Numbered from the stretch's first letter, positions 12,584-45,333 are shown. The stretch: DNA of 46,276 nt from Candidatus Gastranaerophilales bacterium HUM_1 (GCA_963646585.1 CAVIXF010000341.1:1-46276); one strand, 5' to 3'. The notes: a model not told the origin generated them from the sequence alone. Translations and numbers: made by a program.

Positions 12584-12607
12584 CGTGACGGATTTCATGA
12601 CGGATTT
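12584..12607 (+). repeat. Integrase arm-type binding repeats, right
   Basis: CGTGACGGATTT followed by CATGACGGATTT. Confidence 0.7.
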
Positions 12608-13632
12608 CATAAAATGCCGTTGTAGTACGTTTCAAGCCGGTCGAACATTTCGTCCTTCTTGTCCTGCATAATGTGGCCGTAAACACGGTTTACCATATTC
12701 TCCGTATCATGCCCCAGATAGTTGGAAATGTACTTCGTCGGAATCCCCAACATGATCATTACCGACGCGCAGTAATGACGGAGCTCATGAAATGTATAAT
12801 GCTTGCCCGGGCAAGCGGTTTCAAGCGCGACGCAATACCTATCGTAAATATTGTGCGCCTTAAGGTCGGTGACAAACTCGGCGTCGGGACGATAAGCGCG
12901 TTTAAGCGACGCATACACGGGCGGGAGCATTTTCAGCGTCCGTGTGCTGTCCGTCGTCTTCGTGCCTTTGAGGCAAATCGACCGGTCGGCGCGGGTGATT
13001 TTCGCGGAGCGTATGCGCAGCACCTTTTTGTCAAAATCAACATCCCGCCACCGCAGACCGAGAATTTCCGACTGCCTCATCCCACAGAGCGCCGCAAGGT
13101 ATACCGGTGCGTCTATGTCCGTCCCCTCGACCTCATGTAGCAGGGCAAGGACGTCCGCCTCCGTCGGGATTATCGTGTCGGGCTTCTCCCGCTGCGGCAA
13201 TTTCGTCCGCAGCACAAACTCCGGTCGGAACATCTTAAGCGACGCGGACAACAGCCCGTGCATATTCCGCACCGTTTTCGGCTTGTGGTCGACCGATTCA
13301 AGCCCGATGGCGATTTGCACCTGTTCCTGCGTCAGCTCCGACACGAGCAGTGGCTGTATCGTCTCGAGGCTGTTGTCGCACAGCTTGATATACTCATCGT
13401 ACGTCTTCGGCGACAGCGTGTTCTTCTTCGCCTCCGAATACCGCCTCATCGCCTCGCCGACCGTCATCCCCGCATAGGGGTCGTCCGGCTTGTCCACCTT
13501 CTGTTCCGCCTCGAACTGCGCCGCGCGGAGCTGCACGTCCTTCTTATCCTTGCCGGAAAACGTCTTGTACTTATTATCCCCAATCAGCACCCGTGCCCGC
13601 CAGCTGCCGCTCGGAAGCTTGTCTATAATCAT
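12607..13632 (-). CDS. int: Tyrosine integrase
   Basis: GMRQSEILGL, KT, FHELRHYCAS, LGH, VYGH catalytic motifs. Confidence 0.96.
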   Translation of the reverse strand: MIIDKLPSGSWRARVLIGDNKYKTFSGKDKKDVQLRAAQFEAEQKVDKPDDPYAGMTVGEAMRRYSEAKKNTLSPKTYDEYIKLCDNSLETIQPLLVSELTQEQVQIAIGLESVDHKPKTVRNMHGLLSASLKMFRPEFVLRTKLPQREKPDTIIPTEADVLALLHEVEGTDIDAPVYLAALCGMRQSEILGLRWRDVDFDKKVLRIRSAKITRADRSICLKGTKTTDSTRTLKMLPPVYASLKRAYRPDAEFVTDLKAHNIYDRYCVALETACPGKHYTFHELRHYCASVMIMLGIPTKYISNYLGHDTENMVNRVYGHIMQDKKDEMFDRLETYYNGIL

Positions 13633-15672: not shown

Positions 15673-15725
15673 TCTAATAATAATTAGATAAACCTATTGA
15701 CATCTAACAAAAATTAGAGTATAAT
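15673..15725 (+). promoter_or_regulatory. Early lytic promoter with two operators
   Basis: TTGACA 15697-15702, 17 bp, TATAAT 15720-15725; TCTAA-N6-TTAGA at 15673-15688 and 15703-15718 (second fills the spacer). Confidence 0.85.
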
Positions 15726-16461: not shown

Positions 16462-16545
16462 TTAAAGCGTCAGACCAAGCATTAAGAGGTCAACGATGAG
16501 CTGGAGAATGCAGATTGTTAAATACAGTTTCTCGAATTTACTCAC
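16462..16545 (-). CDS. 27-aa hydrophobic peptide MSKFEKLYLTICILQLIVDLLMLGLTL
   Basis: GGAGGTG SD 5 nt before GTG; own promoter; too short for the ORF track. Confidence 0.6.
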   Translation of the reverse strand: MSKFEKLYLTICILQLIVDLLMLGLTL

Positions 16546-16569
16546 AAGACCACCTCCCCATTACGGTTC

Positions 16570-16604
16570 GGCGCTCTGGCGCTCTGGGCGCTCTATGGCG
16601 CTCT
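16570..16604 (-). repeat. 4x AGAGCGCC tandem repeats
   Basis: GGCGCTCT on plus at 16570, 16578, 16587 and 16597. Confidence 0.95.
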
Positions 16605-16655: not shown

Positions 16656-16684
16656 ATTATATCACATTGTCACCATCTTGTCAA
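16656..16684 (-). promoter_or_regulatory. Consensus sigma-A promoter, leftward, extended -10
   Basis: Minus strand TTGACA-agatggtgacaatgtga-TATAAT; -35 lies in the palindrome TGTCAA-N6-TTGACA. Confidence 0.85.
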
Positions 16685-31568: not shown

Positions 31569-31597
31569 TTGACATCAGCATAATTATGTGCTATAAT
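31569..31597 (+). promoter_or_regulatory. Consensus sigma-A promoter, rightward
   Basis: TTGACA-tcagcataattatgtgc-TATAAT. Confidence 0.88.
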
Positions 31598-31674: not shown

Positions 31675-31935
31675 ATGGGGATAACGGAGATAATTCAGGG
31701 AATTCGCAAAGAGAAGAAAGTGACCTACGACCAGCTCGCGAAAGCGACGGGGGCGAAGTCATACACCAACGTGAAGAACGTGCTGTCGCGCGACGGTTCG
31801 GTGAATGTTGAGACGGCGGTAAAGCTGCTTGAAGCGCTTGGGTATGAAATGGTCATTCAGCCGAAGAAGCAGGGACGCAGACCGGACGGGCAGCAGGTCG
31901 TGGCGATCCCCGAGAAGGGAGGGGACGAGCAGTGA
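31675..31935 (+). CDS. XRE-family HTH regulator
   Basis: IRKEKKVTYDQLAKATG..VETAVKLLEALGYE. Confidence 0.8.
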   Translation: MGITEIIQGIRKEKKVTYDQLAKATGAKSYTNVKNVLSRDGSVNVETAVKLLEALGYEMVIQPKKQGRRPDGQQVVAIPEKGGDEQ

Positions 31936-32519
31936 CGTACGCATATGTCAGAGTCTCGACCATCGAGCAGAACGAGGCGCGGCAGATAGACGCGCTCGAG
32001 GCGTCCGGCATCACATTCGACCGGGTGTTCATGGACAAGCAATCCGGCAAAGACTTCAATCGTGCCGAATGGCAGGAGCTTCTCGGGACGATTCGAGGCG
32101 GCGACCTCCTCGTTGTGAAGTCCATTGACCGCCTGGGGCGCGATTATGAAGGCATCATCGAAATGTGGCGGAAGATAACGAAAGAGATCGGCGCGGACAT
32201 TTACGTTCTGGATATGCCGATACTTGACACGCGAAAGAACAAGGATATGCTCGGAACGTTCATCTCCGACCTCGTTCTCCAACTGCTGTCATATGTCGCG
32301 CAGACCGAGCGTGAGAACATCAAGCAGCGCCAGGCGGAGGGGATAGCTTCCGCGAAAGCCCGCGGCGTGAAGCTCGGGAGACCATGCGCGGAGATATCCG
32401 CGAGCGCGTTCGAATCATACCGCGAAAAGGTTGAGCGCAAAGAAATATCCGTCACTCAGGCTTGCCGGGAACTCGGAATTTCAACCGATACATGGTACCG
32501 GCGTGTGAAAGCGGCATAA
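31932..32519 (+). CDS. Serine recombinase (resolvase/invertase family)
   Basis: YAYVRVST..EARQ, VKSIDRLGR, C-terminal HTH. Confidence 0.95.
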   Translation: MTYAYVRVSTIEQNEARQIDALEASGITFDRVFMDKQSGKDFNRAEWQELLGTIRGGDLLVVKSIDRLGRDYEGIIEMWRKITKEIGADIYVLDMPILDTRKNKDMLGTFISDLVLQLLSYVAQTERENIKQRQAEGIASAKARGVKLGRPCAEISASAFESYREKVERKEISVTQACRELGISTDTWYRRVKAA

Positions 32520-32561: not shown

Positions 32562-32831
32562 ATGAACCCGATAACCATGAGCGAGAACTGCACAGCGGCG
32601 CATAACATCAACGCACTGACAGAGGCATACAAGCTGCTGACGAACGAGATCGTCGGCGCGAGAAAGAACGAGAAGATTAAAAAGGCGTATGACGACCTCA
32701 ACGAGGCGTTTTACGCGGCGATTCGCGCGGAGAGTGAGCGGATCGTGCTGAGCGGCGAATCAAGCCGTAACACCGTAACACCGGAATCACGTGTAACGGA
32801 GCGGGTCGACCGTAACACCGTAACACAATAA
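32562..32831 (+). CDS. Hypothetical protein
   Basis: GGAGG SD; repeat-derived C-terminus. Confidence 0.6.
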   Translation: MNPITMSENCTAAHNINALTEAYKLLTNEIVGARKNEKIKKAYDDLNEAFYAAIRAESERIVLSGESSRNTVTPESRVTERVDRNTVTQ

Positions 32832-33038
32832 CACGTGTAACAGCGAAGAACGCTTAGTTTGAACTTAGTTTGCGTTTAGTTTCAAGTTAGTTTTAAGTTA
32901 GTTTTAACCAATACGCAAACAAAATGTAAACGACGGCGCAAGTGCGCAAGTTGCCTCGCAAGTTTAACACAGAATTAACACGGGTTTAACACAGATTCAG
33001 CGTTGAATGTCAATGCGCAACGCTGATTCAGTGTTAAA
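32765..33038 (+). repeat. Cluster of short phased direct-repeat arrays
   Basis: CCGTAACA x4, TTAGTTT x5 (11-bp period), GCAAGT x3, TTAACAC x3 (11-bp period), inverted repeat 32985-33038. Confidence 0.85.
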
Positions 33039-33185
33039 GGCTGCGAACCGCAACCGGCTTTCCCGAAAAGGAAGGACAGCGAGCAGATACCGCAAACGTT
33101 CACCTGACCGCGTGAAGCGGTCACGGAATAACAAACGCATCCCGCACCGGCATTGTGCCGCGCGGAGTACCGAACCCCTATACTT

Positions 33186-33237
33186 AGAGCGCCCAGAGCG
33201 CCATTTTCAGAGGAGAGTGGCGTCTTGGGCGTTTTTT
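33186..33237 (+). promoter_or_regulatory. AGAGCGCC x2 hairpin/terminator covering the probable terL SD and start
   Basis: 20-bp stem (one mismatch, several G-U) with AGAG loop, then T6; AGAGGAG and in-frame TTG 33225 lie in the loop and 3' arm. Confidence 0.75.
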
Positions 33238-35000
33238 CATGTGAAGATACTGGAAATAAAAAATCAAAAAAGGCAAAAAAAGGGAATAAAGCGATAATCC
33301 CCGGTTTTGAGAACTGGAACGACCGGCTGCCGGAGTGCGTCACGCTGTGCGAGGCTATCGCGGCGTACGGGACGGACAGCCTTTCGGTCGCGAAAGACTA
33401 CTTCGACGCGCTGAGGGGGCTCGCGCAGGACAATTCGGCGGAATCGTACGAGGAAGAACTCGCCTACATGGTGGCGAAAGGGAAAGAATTTTTTGACGTC
33501 GTAAATCGTATGCTCGCGAGGTCGGCCGCCGCGAGGACGTCAGCCGCGCCGGAATGGTACGAGCTGAAACGGAAAGTCTGCCTTCTGCTCGCGCCGCACT
33601 CGTTCGACCACTATATGCAGTACGTCGAATGGAACAGAGAACCGTCGCGGAAATTCTGGGTGCCGAGAAGAAGCGTCCTCATGGGGCTGTGCAACGATCT
33701 GCAAGACCTCGAGGAGCATAGGATTAAATTTCTCGGGGTGAGTATGCCGCCTCGTGTCGGAAAATCCACGATTTGTATATTTTTCCTGACCTGGCACATG
33801 GGACGACATCCGGACGACGCGTCCGCTATGGGCGGGCACTCCGACACGCTCGTGAACGGGTTCTACGGCGAGCTGAACGCGGTGCTCGACCCGGACGGCG
33901 AATACCTCTGGCACGACGTGTTCCCGCACGCGCAGATCGAAAGCCGGTCGGCGAAATACCTGCAAATCAACATCAATCACCCGAAGAGATTCCCGACGAT
34001 GACGTGCAGATCGGCGGAAGGCACGTGGACGGGCGCTATCGATATCTCACGGGACGGCATCCTTTACGTCGACGACCTCGTGAAAGACCTCGAGGAATCG
34101 CTGTCTCCCTCCCGTCTCGACGCGAAATACAACATCTACCTGAACCAGATGAAAGACCGTATGAAGGACGGCGCACTACAGCTGATGGTCGGTACGCGCT
34201 GGAACGTCATGGACCCGCTCGGACGTGTGCGCGAACAGTACAGAGACAATCCCGAATACCGGTTCACCGTCATTCCCGCGCTCGACGCGAACGGAGAATC
34301 CAACTTCCAGTACGACTACGGCGTCGGATTCTCGACCGAATACTACCGCGACATGAAAGCGTCAATCGACGACTGCACATGGTGCGCGAAGTACCAGGGC
34401 GCACCGTACGTCCGCCAGGGTCTCGTCTTTCCGCCGGATTCACTGCTCCGCTACAACGGCGTGCTACCGGGCGGATCTCCGGAACGCATTATCGCCGCGT
34501 GCGACGTCGCGTGGGGCGGAGAAGACTATCTGTCAATGCCCATCGTCTACGTGTACGGCGACGGCTCCATGTACTGCGTCGATGTGGTGTTCTCGAACGC
34601 GAACAAGGTATTCACACAGCCCGAAGTGGTCGGCAAGCTGCTGATTCACCGCCCGCATCAGGTACAGTTCGAGGCGAACAACGGCGGAACCGAATATGCG
34701 CAGACGGTTGACGAAATGCTCCGCGCGAAAGGGTGTTCTCTCAACATCTCGACGCGACGCGCTCCCGGCAACGCCTCGAAGCTCTCCCGCATCATCCAGT
34801 ACGCGCCGGATATCGCGAAGATTCACTTTCTCGACTTCGACCACTCGACGCCGGAATACCGCTCGTTCATCGAATGGCTCTGTTCTTTCGTCTCGCTCGG
34901 CAAGAACGTCCACGACGACGCGCCCGATTCGCTCGCACAGCTGATGGACTTAGCAACCGGAAACTGGGGCATTGTCTCGGTTCAGAAACGGGTATTCTGA
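33225..35000 (+). CDS. terL: Terminase large subunit (start uncertain)
   Basis: MPPRVGKST Walker A, LYVDD Walker B, CDVA and HDDAPDS nuclease motifs. Confidence 0.93.
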   Translation: MGVFSCEDTGNKKSKKAKKGNKAIIPGFENWNDRLPECVTLCEAIAAYGTDSLSVAKDYFDALRGLAQDNSAESYEEELAYMVAKGKEFFDVVNRMLARSAAARTSAAPEWYELKRKVCLLLAPHSFDHYMQYVEWNREPSRKFWVPRRSVLMGLCNDLQDLEEHRIKFLGVSMPPRVGKSTICIFFLTWHMGRHPDDASAMGGHSDTLVNGFYGELNAVLDPDGEYLWHDVFPHAQIESRSAKYLQININHPKRFPTMTCRSAEGTWTGAIDISRDGILYVDDLVKDLEESLSPSRLDAKYNIYLNQMKDRMKDGALQLMVGTRWNVMDPLGRVREQYRDNPEYRFTVIPALDANGESNFQYDYGVGFSTEYYRDMKASIDDCTWCAKYQGAPYVRQGLVFPPDSLLRYNGVLPGGSPERIIAACDVAWGGEDYLSMPIVYVYGDGSMYCVDVVFSNANKVFTQPEVVGKLLIHRPHQVQFEANNGGTEYAQTVDEMLRAKGCSLNISTRRAPGNASKLSRIIQYAPDIAKIHFLDFDHSTPEYRSFIEWLCSFVSLGKNVHDDAPDSLAQLMDLATGNWGIVSVQKRVF

Positions 35001-35068
35001 TATCTGTGGCGGAATTTCGTCACTCATGACGGAATTTCGGAATATATATACAAGTATGCTCGGAACAC

Positions 35069-35097
35069 TTGACAAATTCTTGTTTAAGGTGTATAAT
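35069..35097 (+). promoter_or_regulatory. Consensus sigma-A promoter upstream of portal
   Basis: TTGACA-aattcttgtttaaggtg-TATAAT. Confidence 0.8.
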
Positions 35098-35101
35098 AAT
35101 A

Positions 35102-35216
35102 CATGGCGGGCACTCCTATCCCCTTCTGCCCGTATGCCATGCTCCGCACCGTTTGCGGATATGGTTTTCTCCTTCATCCCCGGCGCTGTTTTTAACCTTT
35201 CTCACGCCGGGGTGAA
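35102..35216 (+). ncRNA. Structured three-hairpin leader with pyrimidine-rich loops
   Basis: Stems at 35102-35136, 35137-35164 and 35173-35216; CTCCT in loop 1 and in the linker. Confidence 0.45.
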
Positions 35217-35242
35217 TATTACACAGAACTGGTGGTGAAAGA

Positions 35243-36832
35243 ATGGCGGAACCCAAAGTCGAAGGGTATGCGGACGACGGCACACCCATATTCGGCGCGG
35301 CAGAGCTCCCGGACGTTTCTCCGGTACTGACCGGGCGACATATCATATATACGGACGCGGAAACGGTCGACGCGGCAAACGTCGTACAGGTGCTGAATGA
35401 CGTCCTCCCGACCTTTTACCGGAACCAGAGCGAAATAAACTATCTCTACGGCTACTACAAGGGCAGACAGCCCATCCTCAACCGCGTCAAGGAAGTCCGG
35501 CCGGAGATCAACAACAAAATCGTCGAAAACCACGCGTGGGAAATTGTATCCTTCAAGGTCGCGTACCTCCTCGGAGCGCCCATCGCCTACACGCGCCGGA
35601 AAATCCGGAGCGGAGAGGCACGCATGACCATGACGCCCGATGAGATCACCGCGGCGCAGACACGCGACCCGGTGTCTGATAAGGTCGGACGGCTCAATGA
35701 AATCATGCACGTCCTTGACAAGGAGGCCATCGACCACGACATAGCCGAGTGGAACCACATATGCGGAACCGCTTACCGATATGTCATCGGGAACTTAGCG
35801 AACGACGAGAAAATCGAAATCGGCAGTCTCGACCCGAGACGGACAGGCGTCGTCTACTCGAAAGAGCTCGGCGCGAAGCCCGTCATGGCGTTCCAGGAGA
35901 CGCTCAGAGACAATCAGCAGACAATATACACCGTCTGGACAGATACCATGCAGTTCGAGATCGTGAACAACACCGTCACGTCCTCGAGGCTCCACGGCAT
36001 CGGGGCGGTTCCGATCATCGAGTACCCGCTCAACAACGCGCGGCTCGGCTCATTCGAGGTCGTGCTCGAAGTCCTCGACGGCATCAACAAGCTGTCGTCG
36101 AACCGGCTTGACGGCACGGAGCAGTTCGTCCAGAGTTTCATTAAATTCGTCAACTGCCAGATTGACCCCGAGAAGTACAAGGAGTTCCGGCAGGAAGGCG
36201 CTATCGTCATCAAGTCGGACAACTCGAACCCTTCGGACGTCGATATCATCTCGTCCGAACTCGACCAGTCGCAGACACAGGTCGAAATCGACCACCTCTA
36301 TCAGCAAGCCCTCACGATATGCGGTATGCCGGACAGAAACGGTGCGAACCGCACGACCGGAGACACCGGCAACGCCGTGCTGCTCCGCGACGGGTGGGCA
36401 ATGGCGGAAAGCTGCGCTAGGGACACCGTGATGCAGTGGGAACGCAGCGAAAAGCAGTTCCTCAGAATCGCGCTCTCCCTTCTCAAAATATACGGCAAGC
36501 TCGACCTCGGGCTCGCCGACATCGACATCCGGTTCACGAAAGGTAATACGGAGAACATGCTCGTCAAGACGCAGGCTCTCATGAACCTTCTCGACGCCGG
36601 AGTACATCCCGAAATCGCGTTCGGTATACCTCACCTGTTCGACGACCCGAATCAGGCGTATATCGACTCGATCCCATACCTCGCCGCGCGGCTCCAGTCC
36701 GGGGCTGCCGGGCAGGACAATTCAGGGCAGAAAGACGCAAAGCAAAACAATTCAGGGCAGGACAAGCCCGGAGGCGGAAGCAATGACGGAAACAAAAACG
36801 ATTCCGGCGGCGGAAGCTCCGGAACTGATTAA
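35243..36832 (+). CDS. Portal protein (SPP1-like)
   Basis: LYGYYKGRQPI, NNKIVENHA, VPIIEYPLN; position after terL. Confidence 0.92.
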   Translation: MAEPKVEGYADDGTPIFGAAELPDVSPVLTGRHIIYTDAETVDAANVVQVLNDVLPTFYRNQSEINYLYGYYKGRQPILNRVKEVRPEINNKIVENHAWEIVSFKVAYLLGAPIAYTRRKIRSGEARMTMTPDEITAAQTRDPVSDKVGRLNEIMHVLDKEAIDHDIAEWNHICGTAYRYVIGNLANDEKIEIGSLDPRRTGVVYSKELGAKPVMAFQETLRDNQQTIYTVWTDTMQFEIVNNTVTSSRLHGIGAVPIIEYPLNNARLGSFEVVLEVLDGINKLSSNRLDGTEQFVQSFIKFVNCQIDPEKYKEFRQEGAIVIKSDNSNPSDVDIISSELDQSQTQVEIDHLYQQALTICGMPDRNGANRTTGDTGNAVLLRDGWAMAESCARDTVMQWERSEKQFLRIALSLLKIYGKLDLGLADIDIRFTKGNTENMLVKTQALMNLLDAGVHPEIAFGIPHLFDDPNQAYIDSIPYLAARLQSGAAGQDNSGQKDAKQNNSGQDKPGGGSNDGNKNDSGGGSSGTD

Positions 36833-36968
36833 AGTCCGCTGCCCGCACTGCGGAAGGCTCCTCGGAGCAATAAGCGGTGTGGCAGAGATAAAGTGCCGCG
36901 GCTGCGGGACGACGGTCAGAGCCAGAACAGAAGGCTCACACGCCGTCATACGCACGGTCGCGTCATAA
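36783..36968 (+). CDS. Mu Com-like zinc-ribbon regulator
   Basis: VRCPHCGRLL..AEIKCRGCG matches the Com pattern IRCxxCxKLL..IEIRCPRC; GGAGG SD. Confidence 0.8.
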   Translation: MTETKTIPAAEAPELIKVRCPHCGRLLGAISGVAEIKCRGCGTTVRARTEGSHAVIRTVAS

Positions 36969-36992
36969 GCGGGAACACCCGCACCACAACAC

Positions 36993-37057
36993 AGAGCGCC
37001 AAGAGCGCCAGATATCTACAGGTTTTTACACAACCTGTCGGTTCTGGCGCTCTTTTT
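36993..37057 (+). terminator. AGAGCGCC x2 intrinsic terminator before the head genes
   Basis: AAGAGCGCCAGA/TCTGGCGCTCTT and ACAGGTT/AACCTGT stems followed by T-run. Confidence 0.85.
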
Positions 37058-37110
37058 AACTTATTAAGCCTCTTCCCCGGGGCGACGCTGGTTTTAATTT
37101 ATTAAACAAT

Positions 37111-37169
37111 GGACAGAGAAGTCCGAAAAACGCAAATCTATGGCGGAGAGAACCGCCTCACCAAACGCA
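37111..37169 (+). promoter_or_regulatory. Twin AGAGAA-loop hairpins in the scaffold leader
   Basis: GGAC-AGAGAA-GTCC and GGCGG-AGAGAA-CCGCC, each followed by AAACGCA. Confidence 0.7.
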
Positions 37170-37184
37170 GAAAGGGATTATCAC

Positions 37185-37727
37185 ATGGAACTCAGAGATT
37201 TACTCGGCGAAGACTACCGCGAAGGGATGACGGCCGAAGAGATCGCGACGGCGCTCTCGACCAAGAACTTCGTGAACAAGGAGACCTTCGACAAGACCGC
37301 GTCCGACCTCGCAAAGGCGAAGAAGGACATGAAGACCAACGAAGGCACTCTGACCGAACGCCTCGAAGCGCAGAGGCAGCAGATCGAACAGCTCACCGTC
37401 AAGGCGAACCGTCAGGAAGCGGCAAGCATCCTCGCGGGGAACGGCATGACGAAGGAAGCCTACGAGACCTTCCTCGACGGTATCGTCACCACCGACGCGG
37501 AACAGACGACCTCGGTCGCCACGGCAATCGCAGCGGCGTTCAAGGCCTACGGAGAGGCGACGGCGAACAAGGTCAAGGGAGAACTCGCGGCAGGCGGCAA
37601 AGCCCCCTCACAGGCTCCCGCGACGACCACCATGACCAAGGAAGCTTTCGGCAAGCTCACTTTCGCTGAGCAGGTACAGTTCAAGAACGATAATCCGACC
37701 GAATACGCGGCGCTCTTCAAGGCGTGA
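37185..37727 (+). CDS. Head scaffolding protein
   Basis: Coiled coil; MTKEAFGKLTFAEQVQFKNDNP C-terminus; precedes the capsid gene. Confidence 0.8.
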   Translation: MELRDLLGEDYREGMTAEEIATALSTKNFVNKETFDKTASDLAKAKKDMKTNEGTLTERLEAQRQQIEQLTVKANRQEAASILAGNGMTKEAYETFLDGIVTTDAEQTTSVATAIAAAFKAYGEATANKVKGELAAGGKAPSQAPATTTMTKEAFGKLTFAEQVQFKNDNPTEYAALFKA

Positions 37728-37763
37728 CCGCACAACCACATTTTTCGAAAGGATGATTAAACA

Positions 37764-38786
37764 ATGTCCAAGACCTACCTCAACTACCCGTTTGACGACG
37801 ATCTCTTCATTGCCCGCTGGCTTGCGGAGCCGGATTCTACCAAGACCGCGCTCCTCGATTCCGGCGTAATGGTTGACGACCCGGTGCTCGCCTCGAGACT
37901 CATGTCCTCCGGCAACTACGGCACTATCCCCTTCTACAAGACCCTCACCGGCACTCCCGTGAACCACGACGGCGCGACCGATATCACCTCGACCGAGACC
38001 GAGGCAGACCAGCAGAACTTCGTCGCGTACGGCCGCGACGTCGCATGGACTGCACGCGATTTCGTCGGCGAGCTCTCCGGCGCAGACCCGATGGGTCACA
38101 TTATATCGTCCACCGCGAAATTCTGGGCGAAGTATCGCCAGAAGAAGATTATCGCCATCCTCGGCGCGATCTTCGGCATCACCGGCAACGCCGCGTGGAC
38201 TTCCCATACCGTCGACGTCGGTTCCGCAACCGCGACCGCGAGAAAGATTGAGGCAACCGACCTCAACGACCTCGCGACCGACACCCTCGGCGACAACAAG
38301 GACGCGTACAAGCTCGCTATCATGCACTCCTCCGTCGCCCGCACCCTCGAGAATCTCCAGGTTCTTGACTACTGGAAGCAGACCGACGCGAACGGCATCC
38401 AGAGAAACCTCGGCCTCGCGTCCGTGAACGGCTACACCGTCATCATCGACGACGGCGTTCCGGTCACCACTGTCGGCGGTACTGAGGCGAACAAAGACCT
38501 CAAAAAGTACACTACCTACCTCCTCGGCACCGGCGTTCTCCGCCACTGCTGGGCAAGACAGGACGTGCCGGTTGAAGTCCTCCGCGAGCCGCTGAAGAAC
38601 AACGGTCAGGACACCCTCATCACGAGAATCCGCGAGTGCATCCACCCGAACGGCTTCTCCTTCAAGCTGCCCACCACCGGTTGGACGAACTCCCCCACCG
38701 ACGCGCAGCTCGAGGCGTCCACCAACTGGGCTATCAAGTTCGCGCCGAAGGAAATCCCGATCGCACGCCTCATCACGAACGGCTAA
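37764..38786 (+). CDS. Major capsid protein
   Basis: 340 aa, highly biased codons, VIIDDGVP..HPNGFSF; position. Confidence 0.88.
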   Translation: MSKTYLNYPFDDDLFIARWLAEPDSTKTALLDSGVMVDDPVLASRLMSSGNYGTIPFYKTLTGTPVNHDGATDITSTETEADQQNFVAYGRDVAWTARDFVGELSGADPMGHIISSTAKFWAKYRQKKIIAILGAIFGITGNAAWTSHTVDVGSATATARKIEATDLNDLATDTLGDNKDAYKLAIMHSSVARTLENLQVLDYWKQTDANGIQRNLGLASVNGYTVIIDDGVPVTTVGGTEANKDLKKYTTYLLGTGVLRHCWARQDVPVEVLREPLKNNGQDTLITRIRECIHPNGFSFKLPTTGWTNSPTDAQLEASTNWAIKFAPKEIPIARLITNG

Positions 38787-41175: not shown

Positions 41176-41561
41176 TTCCGAACGCCGCCGAAACGGTATA
41201 CGAAAACTGGCTTCCTGCGGCTTACAGGATCGGGCTTGACCTTACCACATTCTGGCGGCTCAATCCGCGCCGCATGAAGCCTTTTTTAGATATATTCGAA
41301 AAGAACCAGCGTGAAGAACGCGATCGGATGAACTTTCACGCATACATGACCGGCGTCTACGTCCGGGACGCCATCGGCGCATGCTTCTCGAAGAACGGAA
41401 AGTTCCCGGATCGTCCGTACGATCTGAGAAGCGAAGAGGAAAAAGCGGCCGCAATCTCCCCCGAAGAATACGCACGGAGATTGATCCTCATGCAGGAATA
41501 CCACGATAAAGAAAGAAAATTAAAGGAAAAGTTCGGAGGAGGTGAAATAAATGGCAGATAA
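41112..41561 (+). CDS. Tail assembly chaperone extension (T-like), probably by -1 frameshift
   Basis: T TTT TTC at 41112-41118; -1 frame open to 41561 with FWRLNPRRM motif. Confidence 0.65.
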   Translation, partial: FFQSDDREGEDDGEETGKERLIPNAAETVYENWLPAAYRIGLDLTTFWRLNPRRMKPFLDIFEKNQREERDRMNFHAYMTGVYVRDAIGACFSKNGKFPDRPYDLRSEEEKAAAISPEEYARRLILMQEYHDKERKLKEKFGGGEINGR

Positions 41562-44500
41562 CGAAGTGCAAATTGACAGCTTGTCAGTCGCGATAGAGGA
41601 AAGCACCGGACGGGCGTCGAAAGACCTCTCGAGCCTTGCATCCGGACTTAAGAAGCTGCAAAAGAGCGTCGCGGGGTTGAATCTGAACAACGCGATTATA
41701 CAGTTCGGCTCACTGTCGACGGCAATCGGCGGGATCGGAAACAACGCCGACAAGATCACGGCTCTCGCCTCGTCGCTGCTTGACCTCAAGTCGGTCGGGA
41801 AAGTCAGCGCCGCCGTGCCGAAAGCGCTCTCGAACCAGATCACCGCACTTGATACCGCGCTGAGTGGCGTCACCGAATCGGACGTAAAGCGGATATCGTC
41901 ACTGGCATCCGCCCTGACTCAGCTCAGCAGTGCGAAAATGCCGCAAATCTCAGCGTCTATCGGGCATCAAATTCAGAACATCGGAGACGCGGCGAAGAAC
42001 CTGCAAGGCGTGAACCTCACGCGGTTCAAGGAACTTGCAACCGCGTTGCAGCCGCTGTCGGCTCTCACCCCTGCGCACCTCACCTCATTTATTAATCAGC
42101 TCGGCGAATTCTCTCAGCTGTCGAAGGAACTCGAAACCGTCGACATGGACAAATTTGTTTCGACGATTGAGCGGCTTACGGCGGCCATGAAGCCCCTCGC
42201 GACCGAGATGGACAAAATCGCGCGCGGATTCTCAGCTTTTCCGCAGAGAATTCAGACTTTTATTAAAAATAATGAAGAATCGACCAAGAGCGTAAAAAAA
42301 GCCGAACCGACGTGGCAGAAATTCTTTGAGACCATATCAAAGGGCAGTAAAAAAAGTTCGTCAGGGCTGACGAATTTCGCAAAACAGCTTTTCTCGATTT
42401 CGACGATCAAAAAGTTCTGGATGAAAGCTACGGATTCGCTCGAATCCGCCAACGAATACATCGAAGCCCTGAACCTCTTCTACGTCTCGATGGGCGACAA
42501 AGAGCTCGCCGAGAATGCGCAGAAATACGCCGAAATCGTCGGGGACAGCTACGGAATCGACCCCACAGAGTTCATGAAGATGCAAGCGACCTTCATGGAC
42601 GTCTCGAAATCATTCGGCACGGCGAGCGGCACGGCGTATACCATGTCGAAGGCGCTGACGCAGCTGACTTATGATATATCATCTCTTTATAACCTCAAAG
42701 TCGACGAATCGCTGAACAAAGTGCGGTCGGCTCTGGTCGGCGAGATAGAGCCGATCCGCGCCCTCGGAAAAGACCTTTCCGTCGCGAACCTCAAACTCCT
42801 CGCGACCGAACTCGGCATCACTGCGAACGTTGACGCCATGAACCAGTCCGAAAAGGCAATGCTCCGCACGATCTCGCTGCTGAGACAGTCGAAGTCGGCT
42901 ATGGGCGACATGGCGAGAACGCTCGAGCAGCCCGCGAACCAGTTCAGAATCCTTAAAGCGCAGCTGACACTTCTCGGACGGGCAATCGGCGAGCTATTCC
43001 TGCCGATGGTGCAAAAAGTTCTCCCGTACATGATCGCGCTTGTCAAAGTCGGACAGCACATTGTCTCGGCGTTCGCAGCACTCGCGGGGTTTGAACTGCC
43101 GAAATTCGACTACGCGGATTCGATAATCGAAGGCAACGAAGGTATCGCAGATTCCGCAGAGGACGCCGCGAAGAGCGTCAAGAAGCTTTATCAGCTCTCA
43201 TTCGACGAGCTGAACATTCTCGGGAATAAGAACGGCTCCTCGTCCGGAAGCGGGACGAGCGCGGCGGATATCGCGAAGCTTGAAGAGGAGCTTAATCGGC
43301 TGTCGGCAGAGTGGGACACCGCATTTTCGAAGAAGATCGGCGAGACCACCGACAAGATCGCGGAGCAGATTGAGAACTGGATCACCAAAGGGCAGGACGT
43401 CGAAGACTGGGCGGCCGGCGTCTGGAAAGACTTCAAGGGCATCAAGGACGCCGCGGCGGCTGTCGCGGACTCCCTCGGGCTCTGGAAGATTCCCGCCGCT
43501 ATCGCAGACCTCGCGAAGTCTCTCGGGCTTGACGTTGGCGCGGTCGACTTTAATTTCGGATCGTCCACGCAGGGCAAAGTCACCGGCGGCGACACACTGA
43601 AAAAACTGCTCGGAAGCGGGCTGGGGCTGGCGCTCGGGATTGGGGCGCTGGCAATCGCGGCAACAGGCAATGGCGGAGGGCTTCTCGCGAAAGGCCTCGG
43701 AATCGCCCTCGGAATCGGCGCGATAGATATGCTTTATGACAACGTGACGAGCGGAAAGAACGACACGAGCACCGGGAACGGACTGCTGAAAACAGTCACA
43801 AATGCTCTCAGCCTCGGTCTGCTCGGAGCTTCGCTCTCACTGCTCGGCGGCAAGGGGCTGAAATATTCCGTCGAAATGGCATTAGGAATATCATCAGTGC
43901 TACTGCTATTTGACGGCATCACCGGGCTTGTCGATACCGACCCGGATAACGACCTCGCGTCGACCGTCAAGCTGGGCATAGGGGCTGCGCTCGGTGGCAT
44001 TAAGCTGATGGTTGCCGGAGGCGCAGCAGGACTTAAATACACGTTGCCGATGGCTTTAGGCTTCACGAGCCTATCGATGATATTTGCCGGGGCGTCGGCT
44101 ACTGCGGATGGGAACACGCTTCTCGGAATTGTTTCGGGCGCCGTCGGACAGGCATTTGCTGCGGCTACCGGTGGAGCCGTTGCAAAGCTGATAGGAGTCG
44201 CCCCGGCTGCTGGGGCTGGATTAGCGCTGCATTTTTCGATACCATTTGCCATTTCTCTGACGCTTGAAAAAATCGGGTTCTTTGACAAAGCCGGAGAAAA
44301 AATCAAGGACGCTTTTTCGGGAATGGGAGAAGCGTTCAAAAAATCGACGGAGAACTTCAAGAACGGCAAATATGATCCGAATAACATCTTCGGCGTCGCG
44401 GGAAACTGGTTAGACACTCTCGGCGAAACAATCTCCGGCGCGTTTGATGGGCTGACGAAAACAAAATACCCTAAATTGGATAGTGGCAACAGTTTCAAGG

Positions 44501-45333
44501 TTACGGGTAAAAAGATCACCGACGAAATCACAGCAGGAATAGAATCCGGGGCGACGGACGTTAAAGCGGCTGCGTCGAAAGTATCGGACGACGCCGCATC
44601 CAAATTCGCTGACCTCGCCGACAAAGGCAAGTCGGCCGGTGAAAATGTCGCGAAGGGCTTCGTAGCCGGAGTGGACTACAACGCCGATTACGTCACGAAA
44701 GGCATGACCGGCGCGGCGCGCAACGCTATGGTTCAGTTCACCGATGTTCTCGGCATCCACTCCCCATCGACCGTGTTCAAAGAATATGGCCAATACGTCG
44801 ACCTCGGATTCGCTGAGGGCGTCACGCTCGGTCTCCCGAACGTCACGGACGCTTTCGGGAACGTCTGGACGTCGATCCGCGTCGATTTCTCGTCCTTCGC
44901 GAACGGGCTGCTCGCGTCCGCGAGAACCTTTGTCAATCAGCTGAATCAGACGCTCTCATCGGTGTCGTTCGGCGGAAGCAACGCGGCGAAATCCATCATC
45001 GGCAAGACGCCGAAAATGGTTCCCGCCTTCGCGACCGGCGGATTCCCGGAGGACGGAATGTTCTACGCGAACTCTGGCGAACTCGTCGGGCGGTTCTCCA
45101 ACGGGCGGACGGCTGTCGCGAACAACGCGCAGATCGTCGAAGGCATCGAGAACGCCGTCTATCGCGCAATGTCAGCCGCACAGCGCGGCTCAGGGCGCAG
45201 CGGGAAGATAGAACTCATCCTCGACAAGCAAGTCGTCGGACGCGCCTTCGGAGACGCCATAGATTCCGAAAAGAGACGTTCCGGCGCGAACACCAAAATC
45301 ACATTCACGAACGGAGGGCGCGGAAATGGTTAA
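41551..45333 (+). CDS. Tape measure protein
   Basis: 1260 aa, A/G/S/L-rich, LGIHSPS and FATGGFP motifs. Confidence 0.92.
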   Translation: MADNEVQIDSLSVAIEESTGRASKDLSSLASGLKKLQKSVAGLNLNNAIIQFGSLSTAIGGIGNNADKITALASSLLDLKSVGKVSAAVPKALSNQITALDTALSGVTESDVKRISSLASALTQLSSAKMPQISASIGHQIQNIGDAAKNLQGVNLTRFKELATALQPLSALTPAHLTSFINQLGEFSQLSKELETVDMDKFVSTIERLTAAMKPLATEMDKIARGFSAFPQRIQTFIKNNEESTKSVKKAEPTWQKFFETISKGSKKSSSGLTNFAKQLFSISTIKKFWMKATDSLESANEYIEALNLFYVSMGDKELAENAQKYAEIVGDSYGIDPTEFMKMQATFMDVSKSFGTASGTAYTMSKALTQLTYDISSLYNLKVDESLNKVRSALVGEIEPIRALGKDLSVANLKLLATELGITANVDAMNQSEKAMLRTISLLRQSKSAMGDMARTLEQPANQFRILKAQLTLLGRAIGELFLPMVQKVLPYMIALVKVGQHIVSAFAALAGFELPKFDYADSIIEGNEGIADSAEDAAKSVKKLYQLSFDELNILGNKNGSSSGSGTSAADIAKLEEELNRLSAEWDTAFSKKIGETTDKIAEQIENWITKGQDVEDWAAGVWKDFKGIKDAAAAVADSLGLWKIPAAIADLAKSLGLDVGAVDFNFGSSTQGKVTGGDTLKKLLGSGLGLALGIGALAIAATGNGGGLLAKGLGIALGIGAIDMLYDNVTSGKNDTSTGNGLLKTVTNALSLGLLGASLSLLGGKGLKYSVEMALGISSVLLLFDGITGLVDTDPDNDLASTVKLGIGAALGGIKLMVAGGAAGLKYTLPMALGFTSLSMIFAGASATADGNTLLGIVSGAVGQAFAAATGGAVAKLIGVAPAAGAGLALHFSIPFAISLTLEKIGFFDKAGEKIKDAFSGMGEAFKKSTENFKNGKYDPNNIFGVAGNWLDTLGETISGAFDGLTKTKYPKLDSGNSFKVTGKKITDEITAGIESGATDVKAAASKVSDDAASKFADLADKGKSAGENVAKGFVAGVDYNADYVTKGMTGAARNAMVQFTDVLGIHSPSTVFKEYGQYVDLGFAEGVTLGLPNVTDAFGNVWTSIRVDFSSFANGLLASARTFVNQLNQTLSSVSFGGSNAAKSIIGKTPKMVPAFATGGFPEDGMFYANSGELVGRFSNGRTAVANNAQIVEGIENAVYRAMSAAQRGSGRSGKIELILDKQVVGRAFGDAIDSEKRRSGANTKITFTNGGRGNG

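Follow-up and report, generated by a model that had tools for sequence, protein, structure and literature searches.

Antitermination by a protein that binds an RNA element overlapping a terminator is known from BglG, SacY and LicT with their RAT elements, from HutP and from GlpP. Phage late genes are also released by antitermination through processive modification of RNA polymerase, as in the lambda N/nut, lambda Q and HK022 put systems. A third kind of switch is com-mom of phage Mu, whose Com protein, the sole studied member of its family, acts as an activator that melts a neighbouring inhibitory structure (Nowacka et al. 2019, PMC6483171). In that report, SELEX with the Com zinc finger gave the core GAG(N)2CC, the bipartite element NGAGNNCC(N)2-3GAGNNCCNN was present in 868/999 selected sequences, and Com favoured a hairpin form with a C-G loop-closing pair in which GA was protected (PMC6483171). 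Com homologues have been described beside DNA adenine methyltransferases in the Mu-like prophages FluMu, Pnme1 and B3, where the gene that follows each com-like gene has possible Com binding sites ahead of it (PMC3299994).

Our literature search found no description of a Com-type late-gene switch; such a use of Com on phage late genes appears to be undescribed, and appears to be a variant of the Mu com-mom switch. Here we analyse a stretch of 46,276 nucleotides (the window) in which a Com switch, if the reading is true, would gate terL, the capsid operon and the gene of a tiny membrane peptide (Table 1).

Table 1. Features of the window that bear on the proposed switch, in order of position.
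Feature	Position	Strand	Basis
27-aa hydrophobic peptide gene, proposed target 3	16462..16545	-	ORF, leader pairing
Site 3, four tandem AGAGCGCC copies	16570..16604	-	repeat search
Promoter of site 3 leader, TTGACA-17-TATAAT with TG	16656..16684	-	12/12 match
Site 1 Com-type target, heptads GAGCGCC at 33187-33193 and 33196-33202	33186..33202	+	strict SELEX-type motif
Site 1 inhibitory hairpin, terminator-like and TIS-like	33186..33237	+	fold energy
terL, large terminase, proposed target 1	33225..35000	+	phrog_38 terminase large subunit 3.6e-52
Sigma-70-type consensus promoter TTGACA-17-TATAAT, ahead of portal and com	35069..35097	+	12/12 match
Portal gene	35243..36832	+	PF05133 SPP1_portal 1.5e-63
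com-like gene, 61-aa zinc-ribbon, CxxC...CxxC	36783..36968	+	profile matches, alignment, AF2 model
Site 2 Com-type target, heptads at 36994-37000 and 37003-37009	36993..37009	+	motif, fold, conservation
Site 2 terminator-like hairpin	37001..37057	+	fold energy
Scaffold, proposed target 2	37185-37727	+	phrog_172 1.1e-7
Major capsid, proposed target 2	37764-38786	+	phrog_247 major head protein 1.2e-71

A Com-like zinc-ribbon protein encoded behind the portal

The 61-aa CxxC/CxxC ORF and the promoter ahead of the portal lie where the initial annotation had placed them, and its claim that the protein has the Com pattern is borne out by profile comparison. More specifically, PF10122 (Zn_ribbon_Com) matches the protein with 22.7 bits (E 6.8e-5), just under the Pfam gathering cut-off of 22.9, and zinc-ribbon families are the only ones in the Pfam scan. 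The protein also matches phrog_6417, 'translational regulator' (1.6e-5), and hhalign of Mu Com against the family alignment (A4) gives 94.2% with E 1.1e-7. Sequence similarity to Mu Com is weak, at 21% identity (alignment A3). C20, C23, C38 and C41 are invariant across 10 aligned proteins including Mu Com, among which R19 and L27 are nearly invariant. The protein carries the signature taken here for the Com family, with four Cys arranged as two CxxC knuckles in ~50-70 aa, an R preceding the first Cys and two hydrophobic residues behind the first knuckle. The AF2 model has a zinc-ribbon-like beta structure (pLDDT 77); a fold search with it returned generic zinc ribbons only (best E 0.64), and a search by sequence for a solved Com structure found none. 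We infer that the 61-aa protein is a Com-family zinc-ribbon, for which RNA binding is predicted.

Among proteins of related loci, that of L069 is above the PF10122 cut-off (28.7 bits) and that of L154 reaches 20.1, and those of L214 and L224 also match phrog_13819, 'gpCom control of modification'. The proteins of L016, L057, L091, L093, L170 and L166 gave no PF10122 match at E <= 0.01 and belong to generic zinc ribbons or to no family. In the window, the 5' part of the com-like gene shares 50 nt with the portal 3' end, a GGAGG Shine-Dalgarno stands 7 nt ahead of the com-like start, and portal is probably co-transcribed with com. A promoter similar to the one ahead of these two genes is found at the equivalent position in L016.

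Tandem heptads with the form of a Com target

There are 12 copies of AGAGCGCC in the window, where 2.42 are expected (sd 1.59); 0/100 shuffles reach this count (shuffle maximum 7). The initial annotation had reported tandem copies at two places on the plus strand, each with a long hairpin and a T-tract. Both are there exactly as claimed (sites 1 and 2), but a third site on the minus strand (site 3) was overlooked, as were the covarying mini-hairpin that the heptads form, which is the shape of a Com target, and the recurrence of the arrangement in many distant phages. Exact tandem AGAGCGCC-N-AGAGCGCC is found at sites 1 and 2 and, on the minus strand, at 16578-16594 within the four-copy cluster of site 3. 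All three repeat sites are on the transcribed strand; they are sense to the downstream gene, as are all three sites in the L016 genome.

The strict pattern GAGNNCC-N1-3-GAGNNCC occurs in the window exclusively at the three sites, with 5 overlapping matches; in Markov-1 simulations of the window the mean was 0.26 and the highest count 2 (n=200). Adjacent heptads are 2 nt apart in sites 1 and 2; in site 3 the gaps are 3, 2 and 1 nt. The GAGCGCC pairs match the published Com motif GAG(N)2CC-(N)2-3-GAG(N)2CC (PMC6483171). If a Com target is taken to be a short hairpin whose 3-4 bp stem closes a loop of ~6 nt with C-G, the predicted structure has this shape: a GCGC/GCGC stem, a 5-nt loop and a C-G closing pair, at -5.5 kcal/mol. 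At site 1, 33189-33192 pairs with 33198-33201 around the loop CCAGA with this energy, and at site 2, 36996-36999 pairs with 37005-37008 around CAAGA.

In the window's clade, sites 1 and 3 also share CCCTATACT upstream, with ~27 nt common in inverted orientation. The identical heptads and the shared CCCTATACT could in part reflect recent copying between sites. These two sites are mutually inverted, and the segment between them could in principle flip.

Putative inhibitory hairpins at the three sites

At site 1, the large hairpin holds both heptads in its 5' arm, the Shine-Dalgarno GAGGAG (33210-33215) at its apex and TTG 33225 in its 3' arm, and is followed by a T run (33232-33237). The terL Shine-Dalgarno and start are both within the hairpin, as expected of a start-hiding inhibitory structure. 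The region 33170-33250 folds at -35.5 kcal/mol (z -5.73) and 0/200 shuffles fold as well; holding the heptads single-stranded changes the energy from -36.0 to -13.8 kcal/mol. The heptads are unchanged in 17/17 site-1 sequences (the window and 16 related loci) despite three different loop versions downstream, and the homologous hairpin of L016 is maintained despite changes in both arms (-38.7 kcal/mol, z -5.16). The choice of TTG 33225 as likely terL start, made in the initial annotation, is supported because this in-frame position is ATG in 14 of the 17 sequences, with TTG in 2 and ATA in 1.

Site 2 begins 25 nt past the com stop codon, and its heptads are unchanged in 19/19 site-2 sequences. 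Here the hairpin is terminator-like with no gene start inside: the 5' arm (37001-37012) holds heptad 2, the 3' arm spans 37043-37054 and a T run lies at 37053-37057. The fold of 36975-37070 (-33.6 kcal/mol, z -7.29) is again matched by 0/200 shuffles, blocking the heptads takes the energy from -32.5 to -12.3 kcal/mol with the inner hairpin alone left, and in relatives both inner-stem and outer-stem substitutions preserve pairing. Scaffold and capsid (37185..38786) are the start of the operon downstream. A GC-rich stem followed by a U run, the mark of an intrinsic terminator, is present at sites 1 and 2 and at the homologous sites in L016, L057, L214, L219 and L224; termination itself is predicted. 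The motif overlaps the 3' end of com in L016 and L057, in a reading frame that differs between the two, which argues for selection on the motif at the nucleotide level.

Site 3 lies in a leader, ~50 nt downstream of a consensus promoter, with copies at spacings of 10, 9 and 8 nt; relatives hold two copies. The gene that follows starts with GTG at 16545 behind a GGGGAGG Shine-Dalgarno (16553-16559), and its product would be a tiny membrane peptide, with no match in PHROG. The peptide start is covered by GGUGGUCUUG, a sequence with which the last two heptads can pair. The resulting hairpin is weaker and would hide the start weakly, and the whole leader folds no better than shuffles (z -0.86, 34/200 as good). 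In the L016 genome, four degenerate heptads occupy the syntenic place and the homologous peptide has an ATG start.

Covariation and co-occurrence with the Com-like gene

Across 22 sites from diverse phages, 88/88 cells of the mini-hairpin are paired, all 4 pairs have changed on both sides (12 cells) and 0/500 shuffles reach the observed covariation score, in a set where some rows come from a pairing-demanding scan and close relatives are not independent. The L016 heptads, GAGCAUC/GAAUGCC and GAGCGUC/GAACGCC, still pair, both with each other in the mini-hairpin and with the large hairpin's 3' arm. As a positive control, the Mu mom leader site (L183 876-892) was recovered by a structural pattern of GA, 4 nt, C, 1-3 nt, GA, the 4 nt in complement and C.

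Co-occurrence was assessed in two sets of loci picked by portal similarity alone. In the first (32 loci), a Com-like ORF is present in 18, with the hairpin at the ORF 3' end in 18/18; at that place it is found in 0/14 loci without the ORF. The second comprised 33 loci, of which 3 were too short for a verdict; the ORF is present in 15, with a strict-pattern hairpin in 14 and a variant plus terminator in 1 (L221), and a plus-strand hairpin is found in 0/15 loci without it. The initial annotation had named repeats in relatives without the gene as the observation that would speak against its reading. Pooling the sets, the strict-pattern hairpin is present in 31/32 loci with the Com-like ORF and, at that place, in 0/29 of the Com-less portal relatives.

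The motif is retained across phages at 39-43% portal identity and very different base composition. A hairpin plus terminator stands directly ahead of terminase genes in L214-216, L219, L220, L245, L224 and L226-229. In a motif-first scan of viral contigs, a terminator-like 3' arm was present in 11 distinct contexts, each of them with a Watson-Crick closing pair (7 C-G, 4 U-A); of the remaining contexts, 60/103 have one. In L069, L091/L128, L093, L154, L166 and L170 a Com-like ORF precedes the motif on its own strand, and one was found in 2/2 near-complete records searched. Around 14 weak PF10122 matches in host-phylum genomes (2 at or above the cut-off), no hairpin was found on the match strand within ~1.5 kb. 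Rfam returned no matching family. Of the sampled words, a share of 0.07 was present in the single RNA run found.

Proposed mechanism and alternative explanations

We consider it probable that the Com-like protein binds the mini-hairpin and blocks the inhibitory hairpin, causing antitermination and/or translational activation. The proposal of the initial annotation that the protein recognises the repeats and relieves an inhibitory structure is supported by the fit to the SELEX motif, by the profile match and by the outcome in the 29 Com-less portal relatives, and binding and its direction are predictions from sequence. The tandem heptad pair would be the Com RNA target, a hairpin of four base pairs whose loop of 5-6 nt ends in GA and whose stem is followed by a C, and the mini-hairpin 3' half would double as part of the inhibitory hairpin 5' arm at all three sites. 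The two structures would compete for these nucleotides at sites 1, 2 and 3, and since the nucleotides are shared, stabilising the mini-hairpin must weaken the inhibitory hairpin. A portal-com transcript, probably from the 35069 promoter, would supply Com; Com would then catch the nascent mini-hairpin at its exit from RNA polymerase, and preventing the inhibitory hairpin would allow transcription read-through and open the start sites. Portal and com would be expressed first, then terminase and capsid. The large hairpins are ~30 kcal/mol more stable than the mini-hairpin (-5.5), and therefore Com could win only kinetically, during transcription.

This energy gap, which strongly favours the large hairpins, also fits a different outcome of Com binding, in which the protein would act as a repressor, stabilise its own mRNA at the 3' end or regulate its own synthesis. 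In every lineage site 2 sits at the 3' end of com or over it, as would suit feedback, and the last heptad of site 3 is ~10 nt from the Shine-Dalgarno, where bound protein could hinder ribosomes. Yet mini- and inhibitory hairpins share nucleotides at all three sites, and activation by melting is the mode described for Mu Com, and we regard these outcomes as unlikely.

We give little credence to plain intrinsic terminators or damping hairpins that need no trans-acting protein, with heptads from a copied cassette and a zinc-ribbon of unrelated role. Such hairpins would work alone, as both large ones have a GC-rich stem and a T run; the Com-less L049 likewise has a terminator between the portal-adjacent small ORF and scaffold, and the extra upstream sequence common to sites 1 and 3 in the window's clade suggests copying. 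However, heptad 1 of site 2 lies outside the terminator, yet is invariant in 19/19 sequences and covaries with heptad 2. The motif equals the one selected independently with Com (PMC6483171), tracks gene presence over 61 portal-selected loci, and is kept through divergence of portal and base composition and in two com frames. Action of the repeats as DNA, either as operators for an HTH protein or as sites for the serine recombinase (31932-32519), would suit direct 8-mers about one helical turn apart that resemble operator arrays, the HTH and recombinase genes just upstream of site 1 and the inverted ~27 nt common to sites 1 and 3, but is very improbable given the inconstant spacing (8, 9, 10 nt), the sense strand at all sites, compensatory changes and G-U pairs that preserve pairing, meaningful only in RNA, and post-inversion flanks in 0/17 site-1 sequences.

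Comparison with known systems

The switch proposed here, Com binding that blocks an inhibitory hairpin, resembles Mu com-mom in its small four-Cys zinc-ribbon protein, in a target whose two GAG(N)2CC-like elements fold into a short hairpin, and in the position of a target at the com 3' end, adjoining or overlapping an inhibitory hairpin. The Mu inhibitory structure has its Shine-Dalgarno in the loop and a GUG start in the 3' arm (PMC6483171), and sites 1 and 3 are alike in this. The proposed switch differs in what would be regulated: a DNA-modification gene in Mu, and here terL, the scaffold-capsid operon and the 27-aa peptide gene. Directly after com, where the Mu operon has a DNA-modification enzyme, there are scaffold and capsid genes instead. 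Mu has one target, whereas there are three candidate targets here; the inhibitory structure of sites 1 and 2 is terminator-like with a T run, so that antitermination is also predicted; and the heptads are the inhibitory hairpin's own 5' arm, unlike the separate neighbouring hairpin of Mu. The FluMu, Pnme1 and B3 systems are one-gene DNA-modification switches of transposable phages, whereas the present one belongs to the packaging-head module, in a siphovirus-like phage whose portal is of the SPP1 type.

The logic is also that of BglG/LicT and RAT, in which a protein-stabilised small hairpin shares bases of the terminator 5' arm and binding prevents termination. The protein fold is unrelated, however, with no CAT/PRD or HutP domain found by Pfam in the 61-aa protein, and there is no evident sensory input, the putative regulator being a phage protein encoded just upstream of one of its own targets. 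The system would work like the RAT/terminator class but is not a member of it. As with lambda N and Q and HK022 put, phage late or structural genes would be released by overcoming terminators; in contrast to those systems, what is seen here suggests that RNA structures compete locally at every terminator.

Genome organization of the phage

The window (46 kb) is one entire contig of its assembly and, by its sequence, reads as a temperate, siphovirus-like phage. Its features are collected in the table, including the gene for a 61-aa zinc-ribbon protein likened to Com of phage Mu (here Com). Direct terminal repeats occur on related viral contigs (43-48 kb), and the close relatives of the window come from bins of two unrelated host taxa. 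No Rfam family matched the whole window at gathering thresholds, none was found at E <= 1 in 32800-37300, and a tRNA search of the window found none.

Coordinates of the features in the window
Feature	Position	Strand	Remark
Integrase	12607-13632	-	profile searches
HTH regulators		-	profile searches
Perfect sigma-70 match	15697-15725	+
27-aa hydrophobic ORF	16462-16545	-	GTG start
Site 3	16570-16604	-	four-copy cluster
Perfect sigma-70 match	16684-16656	-	~50 nt upstream of site 3
Early and replication genes	from ~16.7 kb	+	profile searches
Perfect sigma-70 match	31344-31316	-
Perfect sigma-70 match	31569-31597	+
HTH gene and serine recombinase (resolvase/invertase type)	31675-32519	+	recombinase 31932-32519; directly upstream of terL leader
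Site 1	33186-33202	+	exact tandem copies
terL	to 35000	+
CGGAATTTCG direct repeat	35010-35019, 35030-35039	+	20 nt apart
Perfect sigma-70 match	35069-35097	+	portal-com promoter
SPP1-type portal	35243-36832	+
61-aa zinc-ribbon ORF (com-like)	36783-36968	+
Site 2	36993-37009	+	exact tandem copies
Tandem AGAGAA stem-loops	37110-37157	+	between site 2 terminator and scaffold start
Scaffold, major capsid, head-tail and tail genes	after com-like ORF	+
Tape measure	41551-45333	

Five matches to the sigma-70 consensus are perfect (12 of 12), and two of them form a divergent pair (~31.3-31.6 kb) adjoining a 65% GC segment (30-31 kb) that bears a minus-strand ORF. The CGGAATTTCG repeat precedes the -35 element of the promoter at 35069 by ~30 nt and could be an activator or repressor binding site for the portal-com promoter. 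A serine recombinase also precedes terL in the related locus L016 (837-1625), and phage Mu has its invertase gene gin immediately before com-mom. We considered whether the neighbouring recombinase inverts the segment between sites 1 and 3 and rejected this, swapped flanks being found in none of 17 site-1 sequences (the window and 16 related loci). Among close relatives (L032-L048) the distance from site 1 to the end of the portal falls into three classes of ~3.6, 4.1 and 4.6 kb, which implies that some of them carry putative insertions of ~0.5 and ~1.0 kb within terL or next to it.

Tandem heptads match the Com RNA motif

The sequence AGAGCGCC occurs 12 times in the window against 2.42 expected, and 12 or more copies were seen in none of 100 shuffles. 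The initial annotation had placed tandem copies at two late-gene checkpoints; they are present at both (sites 1 and 2), but a third cluster, of four copies on the minus strand (site 3), had been missed. Site 3 is followed directly by a GGGGAGG Shine-Dalgarno sequence and the start of the 27-aa ORF. Since it sits between its promoter and that start, all three clusters lie on the transcribed strand.

In an in vitro selection study, a Com zinc finger selects a core GAG(N)2CC, with a bipartite form, NGAGNNCC(N)2-3GAGNNCCNN, in 868 of 999 selected sequences; a hairpin is favoured over a duplex, the target loop is closed by a C-G pair and GA dinucleotides are protected (Nowacka et al., 2019, PMC6483171). 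The pair of heptads in the window, GAGCGCC-NN-GAGCGCC, is an exact instance of this motif, and the three sites are the only places in the window with the strict bipartite pattern (0.26 expected, with a maximum of 2 in 200 simulations). The two heptads are predicted to pair with each other as a mini-hairpin with a GCGC/GCGC stem, a CCAGA or CAAGA loop and a C-G closing pair (-5.5 kcal/mol). A structural pattern modelled on this mini-hairpin (GA, 4 nt, C, 1-3 nt, GA, complement of those 4 nt, C) also retrieved Mu's own site, in the mom leader (GAAUGCC-UGC-GAGCAUC, L183 876-892).

The heptads are shared with larger hairpins

Long hairpins with T-tracts had been described at sites 1 and 2, and folding bears this out: their stabilities are -35.5 kcal/mol (z -5.73 against shuffles) and -33.6 kcal/mol (z -7.29), respectively, and a T run follows each. 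The 5' arm at site 1 is formed by the two heptads, while the apical part contains the Shine-Dalgarno sequence and the 3' arm the terL start. The proposed start, an in-frame TTG at 33225, is supported by comparison of the site-1 sequences, in which this position is ATG in 14/17, TTG in 2/17 and ATA in 1/17, and no other in-frame start codon was found upstream of 33469. Site 2 has a terminator-like hairpin 25 nt past the com stop codon, with heptad 2 plus AGA as its 5' arm. The last heptads of site 3 can pair, weakly, with GGUGGUCUUG across the start codon, and the fold of the whole leader there is no stronger than that of shuffled sequences (z -0.86). The TATACT immediately before sites 1 and 3 could be read as part of a promoter, but it has no -35 match and is not conserved in L016.

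Every one of the three sites has bases common to the mini-hairpin and the larger hairpin. When the heptads were held single-stranded, the stability of the fold fell from -36.0 to -13.8 kcal/mol at site 1 and from -32.5 to -12.3 kcal/mol at site 2. The large hairpins are far more stable than the mini-hairpin, so a protein could win only if it bound the nascent RNA ahead of synthesis of the 3' arm.

Both structures persist in L016, a moderately distant relative (portal 68% and Com 37% identical). The exact octamer is lost there (site 1, GAGCAUC-CA-GAAUGCC; site 2, GAGCGUC-AU-GAACGCC), the pairing of the mini-hairpins is kept by changes on both sides, and the 3' arms have changed in step, which keeps the large hairpins (-38.7 and -36.0 kcal/mol; z -5.2 and -5.5). 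Site 3, too, has a counterpart in the L016 genome, where four heptads in degenerate form lie behind a consensus promoter and the homologous 27-aa peptide starts with ATG. Four close relatives carry two copies at site 3. As a separate observation, in L016 (1823-1880) the terL ATG (1864) is ~25 nt downstream of the site 1 hairpin, and a short ORF that begins in the 3' arm runs to 1880 and overlaps the start of terL, an arrangement that suggests translational coupling rather than a buried start.

Pairing held in 88 of 88 cells over 22 sites from diverse phages, all four pairs changed on both sides and the observed score was reached in none of 500 shuffles, a count that overstates independence because several rows came from a scan requiring pairing and others from a pattern fixing most positions. 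A motif-first scan of viral contigs, with the closing pair left free, returned at least 119 stretches, including many chance matches in GC-rich coding DNA. Among the matches listed, the closing pair is Watson-Crick in 11/11 distinct contexts with a terminator-like 3' arm (7 C-G, 4 U-A) versus 60/103 others. In L016 and L057 the end of the com ORF and the motif overlap, each time in a different reading frame, which shows that selection acts on the nucleotides as such.

Hairpin and com-like gene occur together

Relatives were picked by portal similarity alone, that is, independently of both the com-like gene and the motif. In the first set (32 loci), a small CxxC...CxxC ORF stands just after the portal in 18, each with the hairpin at its 3' end (18/18), and the 14 loci without this ORF have no hairpin at that place; a plus-strand match lies 2.1 kb downstream in one of these and minus-strand matches occur in two. 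The second set comprised 33 loci with portals 39-100% identical to that of L057, three of them with too little downstream sequence for a verdict. Here the ORF is present in 15 and the strict-pattern hairpin in 14 of these, the fifteenth (L221) carrying GAGCGCA-UUU-GAGCGCC and a terminator; the 15 loci without the ORF have no plus-strand match, and minus-strand matches containing G-U were found in four. The possibility, raised initially, that the repeats persist in relatives lacking the gene is thus answered by a hairpin at this place in 0/14 and a plus-strand hairpin in 0/15. The portal-selected loci represent roughly 7 Com-bearing and at least 10 Com-less lineages (a rough grouping by portal identity), kin within a lineage not being independent.

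Low-GC lineages carry a second hairpin-plus-terminator directly upstream of the terminase genes (L214-216, L219, L220, L245; L224, L226-229), which indicates that the two-site layout is old. Among the matches listed, the motif-first loci L069, L091/L128, L093, L154, L166 and L170 have a Com-like ORF upstream on the same strand. A Com-like ORF was found in 2/2 near-complete records searched and matched in 2/8 records that are 10-40% fragments (G410 at E 2.1e-13, G409 weakly).

Two loci (L049 4879-5034, L054 4897-5061) have no Com-like gene and carry at the same place, overlapping the 3' end of the portal, a Cys-free ORF of 51-54 aa that has no Pfam match and may be an analogous small regulator. 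In L049 this ORF is followed by a terminator-like hairpin without heptads.

The two AGAGAA stem-loops before scaffold have stems GGAC...GUCC and GGCGG...CCGCC, each followed by an AAACGCA-like stretch, and no Rfam match. Two or three such hairpins, with stems that differ yet remain paired, follow the portal in L047, L057, L214, L217, L218, L221, L230, L232 and L233 (upstream of the scaffold start where viewed), among them Com-bearing and some Com-less relatives, and the rest of the loci is nearly free of them. They look like a separate conserved leader RNA.

The com-like protein

The Com motif pattern attributed to the 61-aa protein holds on alignment, its four Cys and the R before the first Cys aligning with Mu Com. 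PF10122 (Zn_ribbon_Com) scores it at 22.7 bits, just under the cut-off of 22.9, and does not recognize several relatives' Com-like proteins at all; phrog_6417, a 'translational regulator', matches at 1.6e-5. A profile built from the protein and six relatives matched Mu Com with a probability of 94.2% (E 1.1e-7). An AF2 model (pLDDT 77) retrieved only generic zinc ribbons with Foldseek (LysW, E 0.64), and a PDB sequence search found no Com entry. Sequence searches returned few homologues: two tblastn searches against isolated phages gave 1 and 3 records, a word-based protein search gave 3 close homologues, and L069 Com as query retrieved itself and two 11-residue matches only.

In 401 genomes of the host's phylum, weak matches were found in 15 (PF10122) and 4 (the profile of the protein and six relatives, A4), the window's own genome counted. 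The 14 PF10122 loci in the other genomes have no nearby hairpin on the match strand, which is uninformative rather than a refutation because most of these matches are probably generic zinc ribbons. In the near-complete viral record G414 (L203, ~1500-1600), a Com-like match inside a 736-aa open frame lies ~220 nt upstream of the hairpin and could be a fusion of a Com domain with a larger protein, possibly the portal.

A proposed switch and its alternatives

We consider it fairly likely that Com, bound at the mini-hairpins, relieves the inhibitory hairpins. Transcription of portal and com would probably start at the consensus promoter (35069), a promoter conserved in L016. Without Com, the portal-com transcript would end at the site 2 hairpin, and transcripts from upstream would end at site 1 with the terL start buried. 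Rising Com would bind nascent mini-hairpins and block the inhibitory hairpins, opening the scaffold-capsid-tail operon and terL and probably also translation of the 27-aa peptide. Antiterminators of RAT/terminator systems bind nascent RNA before the 3' arm of the terminator is made. The proposal builds on observed sequence, fold, conservation, co-occurrence and motif fit, and from these we infer that Com would bind, with what sign it would act and when. Counting against it are the Pfam score under the cut-off together with the relatives missed by PF10122, the unremarkable fold of site 3, and the weak PF10122 matches in 14 other genomes that lack a nearby hairpin on the match strand. In one metatranscriptome run, available as contigs, which do not show RNA ends, the share of sampled words was 0.07.

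An alternative is a Com that binds but represses, stabilises its own message or autoregulates, which we judge unlikely. Plain terminators, with heptads shared through copying, would likewise carry T runs; set beside the conserved pairing and the co-occurrence with the gene, they seem quite improbable. Operators or recombination sites acting at the DNA level are scarcely credible, being weakened by the strand bias of the sites, their variable spacing (8-10 nt), pairing upheld through G-U pairs and unchanged flanks in 17/17 site-1 sequences.

Returning to relief of the hairpins by Com, a broader reading can be offered tentatively, with slightly less than even confidence in its parts taken together. 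Com-family zinc ribbons might be widespread, overlooked regulators of phage late genes: one protein of 47-66 aa, encoded right after the portal, would bind small GA-loop hairpins and act locally, both as antiterminator and as activator of translation; portal and com would have to be expressed before terminase, the scaffold-capsid-tail operon and a small membrane peptide are licensed, which would give many gut siphophages a 'portal-first' assembly timer; and Mu com-mom would be a specialised offshoot of this late-gene circuit.

Comparison with known systems

To our knowledge, the timing of late genes in most uncultured temperate phages is not known, and Com has so far been treated as a curiosity controlling one DNA-modification gene. 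A full-text literature search, which covers few subscription journals and may miss older work, found no description of a Com circuit for terminase or capsid genes or of a Com antiterminator. Here the experimentally defined Com RNA motif is found at terminator-like hairpins that precede the capsid operon and the terminase genes. This is so in several divergent lineages, and only together with a Com-like gene. If the switch holds, a protein of ~50 aa and a hairpin of ~20 nt would explain how a large group of gut phages controls its late genes, extend the role of Com from translational activation to antitermination and provide a compact, portable regulatory part; it would also name concrete RNAs for the Com-RNA complex, still unsolved structurally.

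Known Com homologues adjoin DNA-modification genes (PMC3299994). The circuit proposed here differs from Mu com-mom in which genes are regulated, in how many targets there are and in having inhibitory hairpins that resemble terminators. It would resemble Mu com-mom in its mode of working, and its RNA target has the tested features of a Com site. The design of site 1, with the Shine-Dalgarno sequence apical and the start in the 3' arm, is that of the Mu translation inhibition structure, to which a terminator-like tail is added here.
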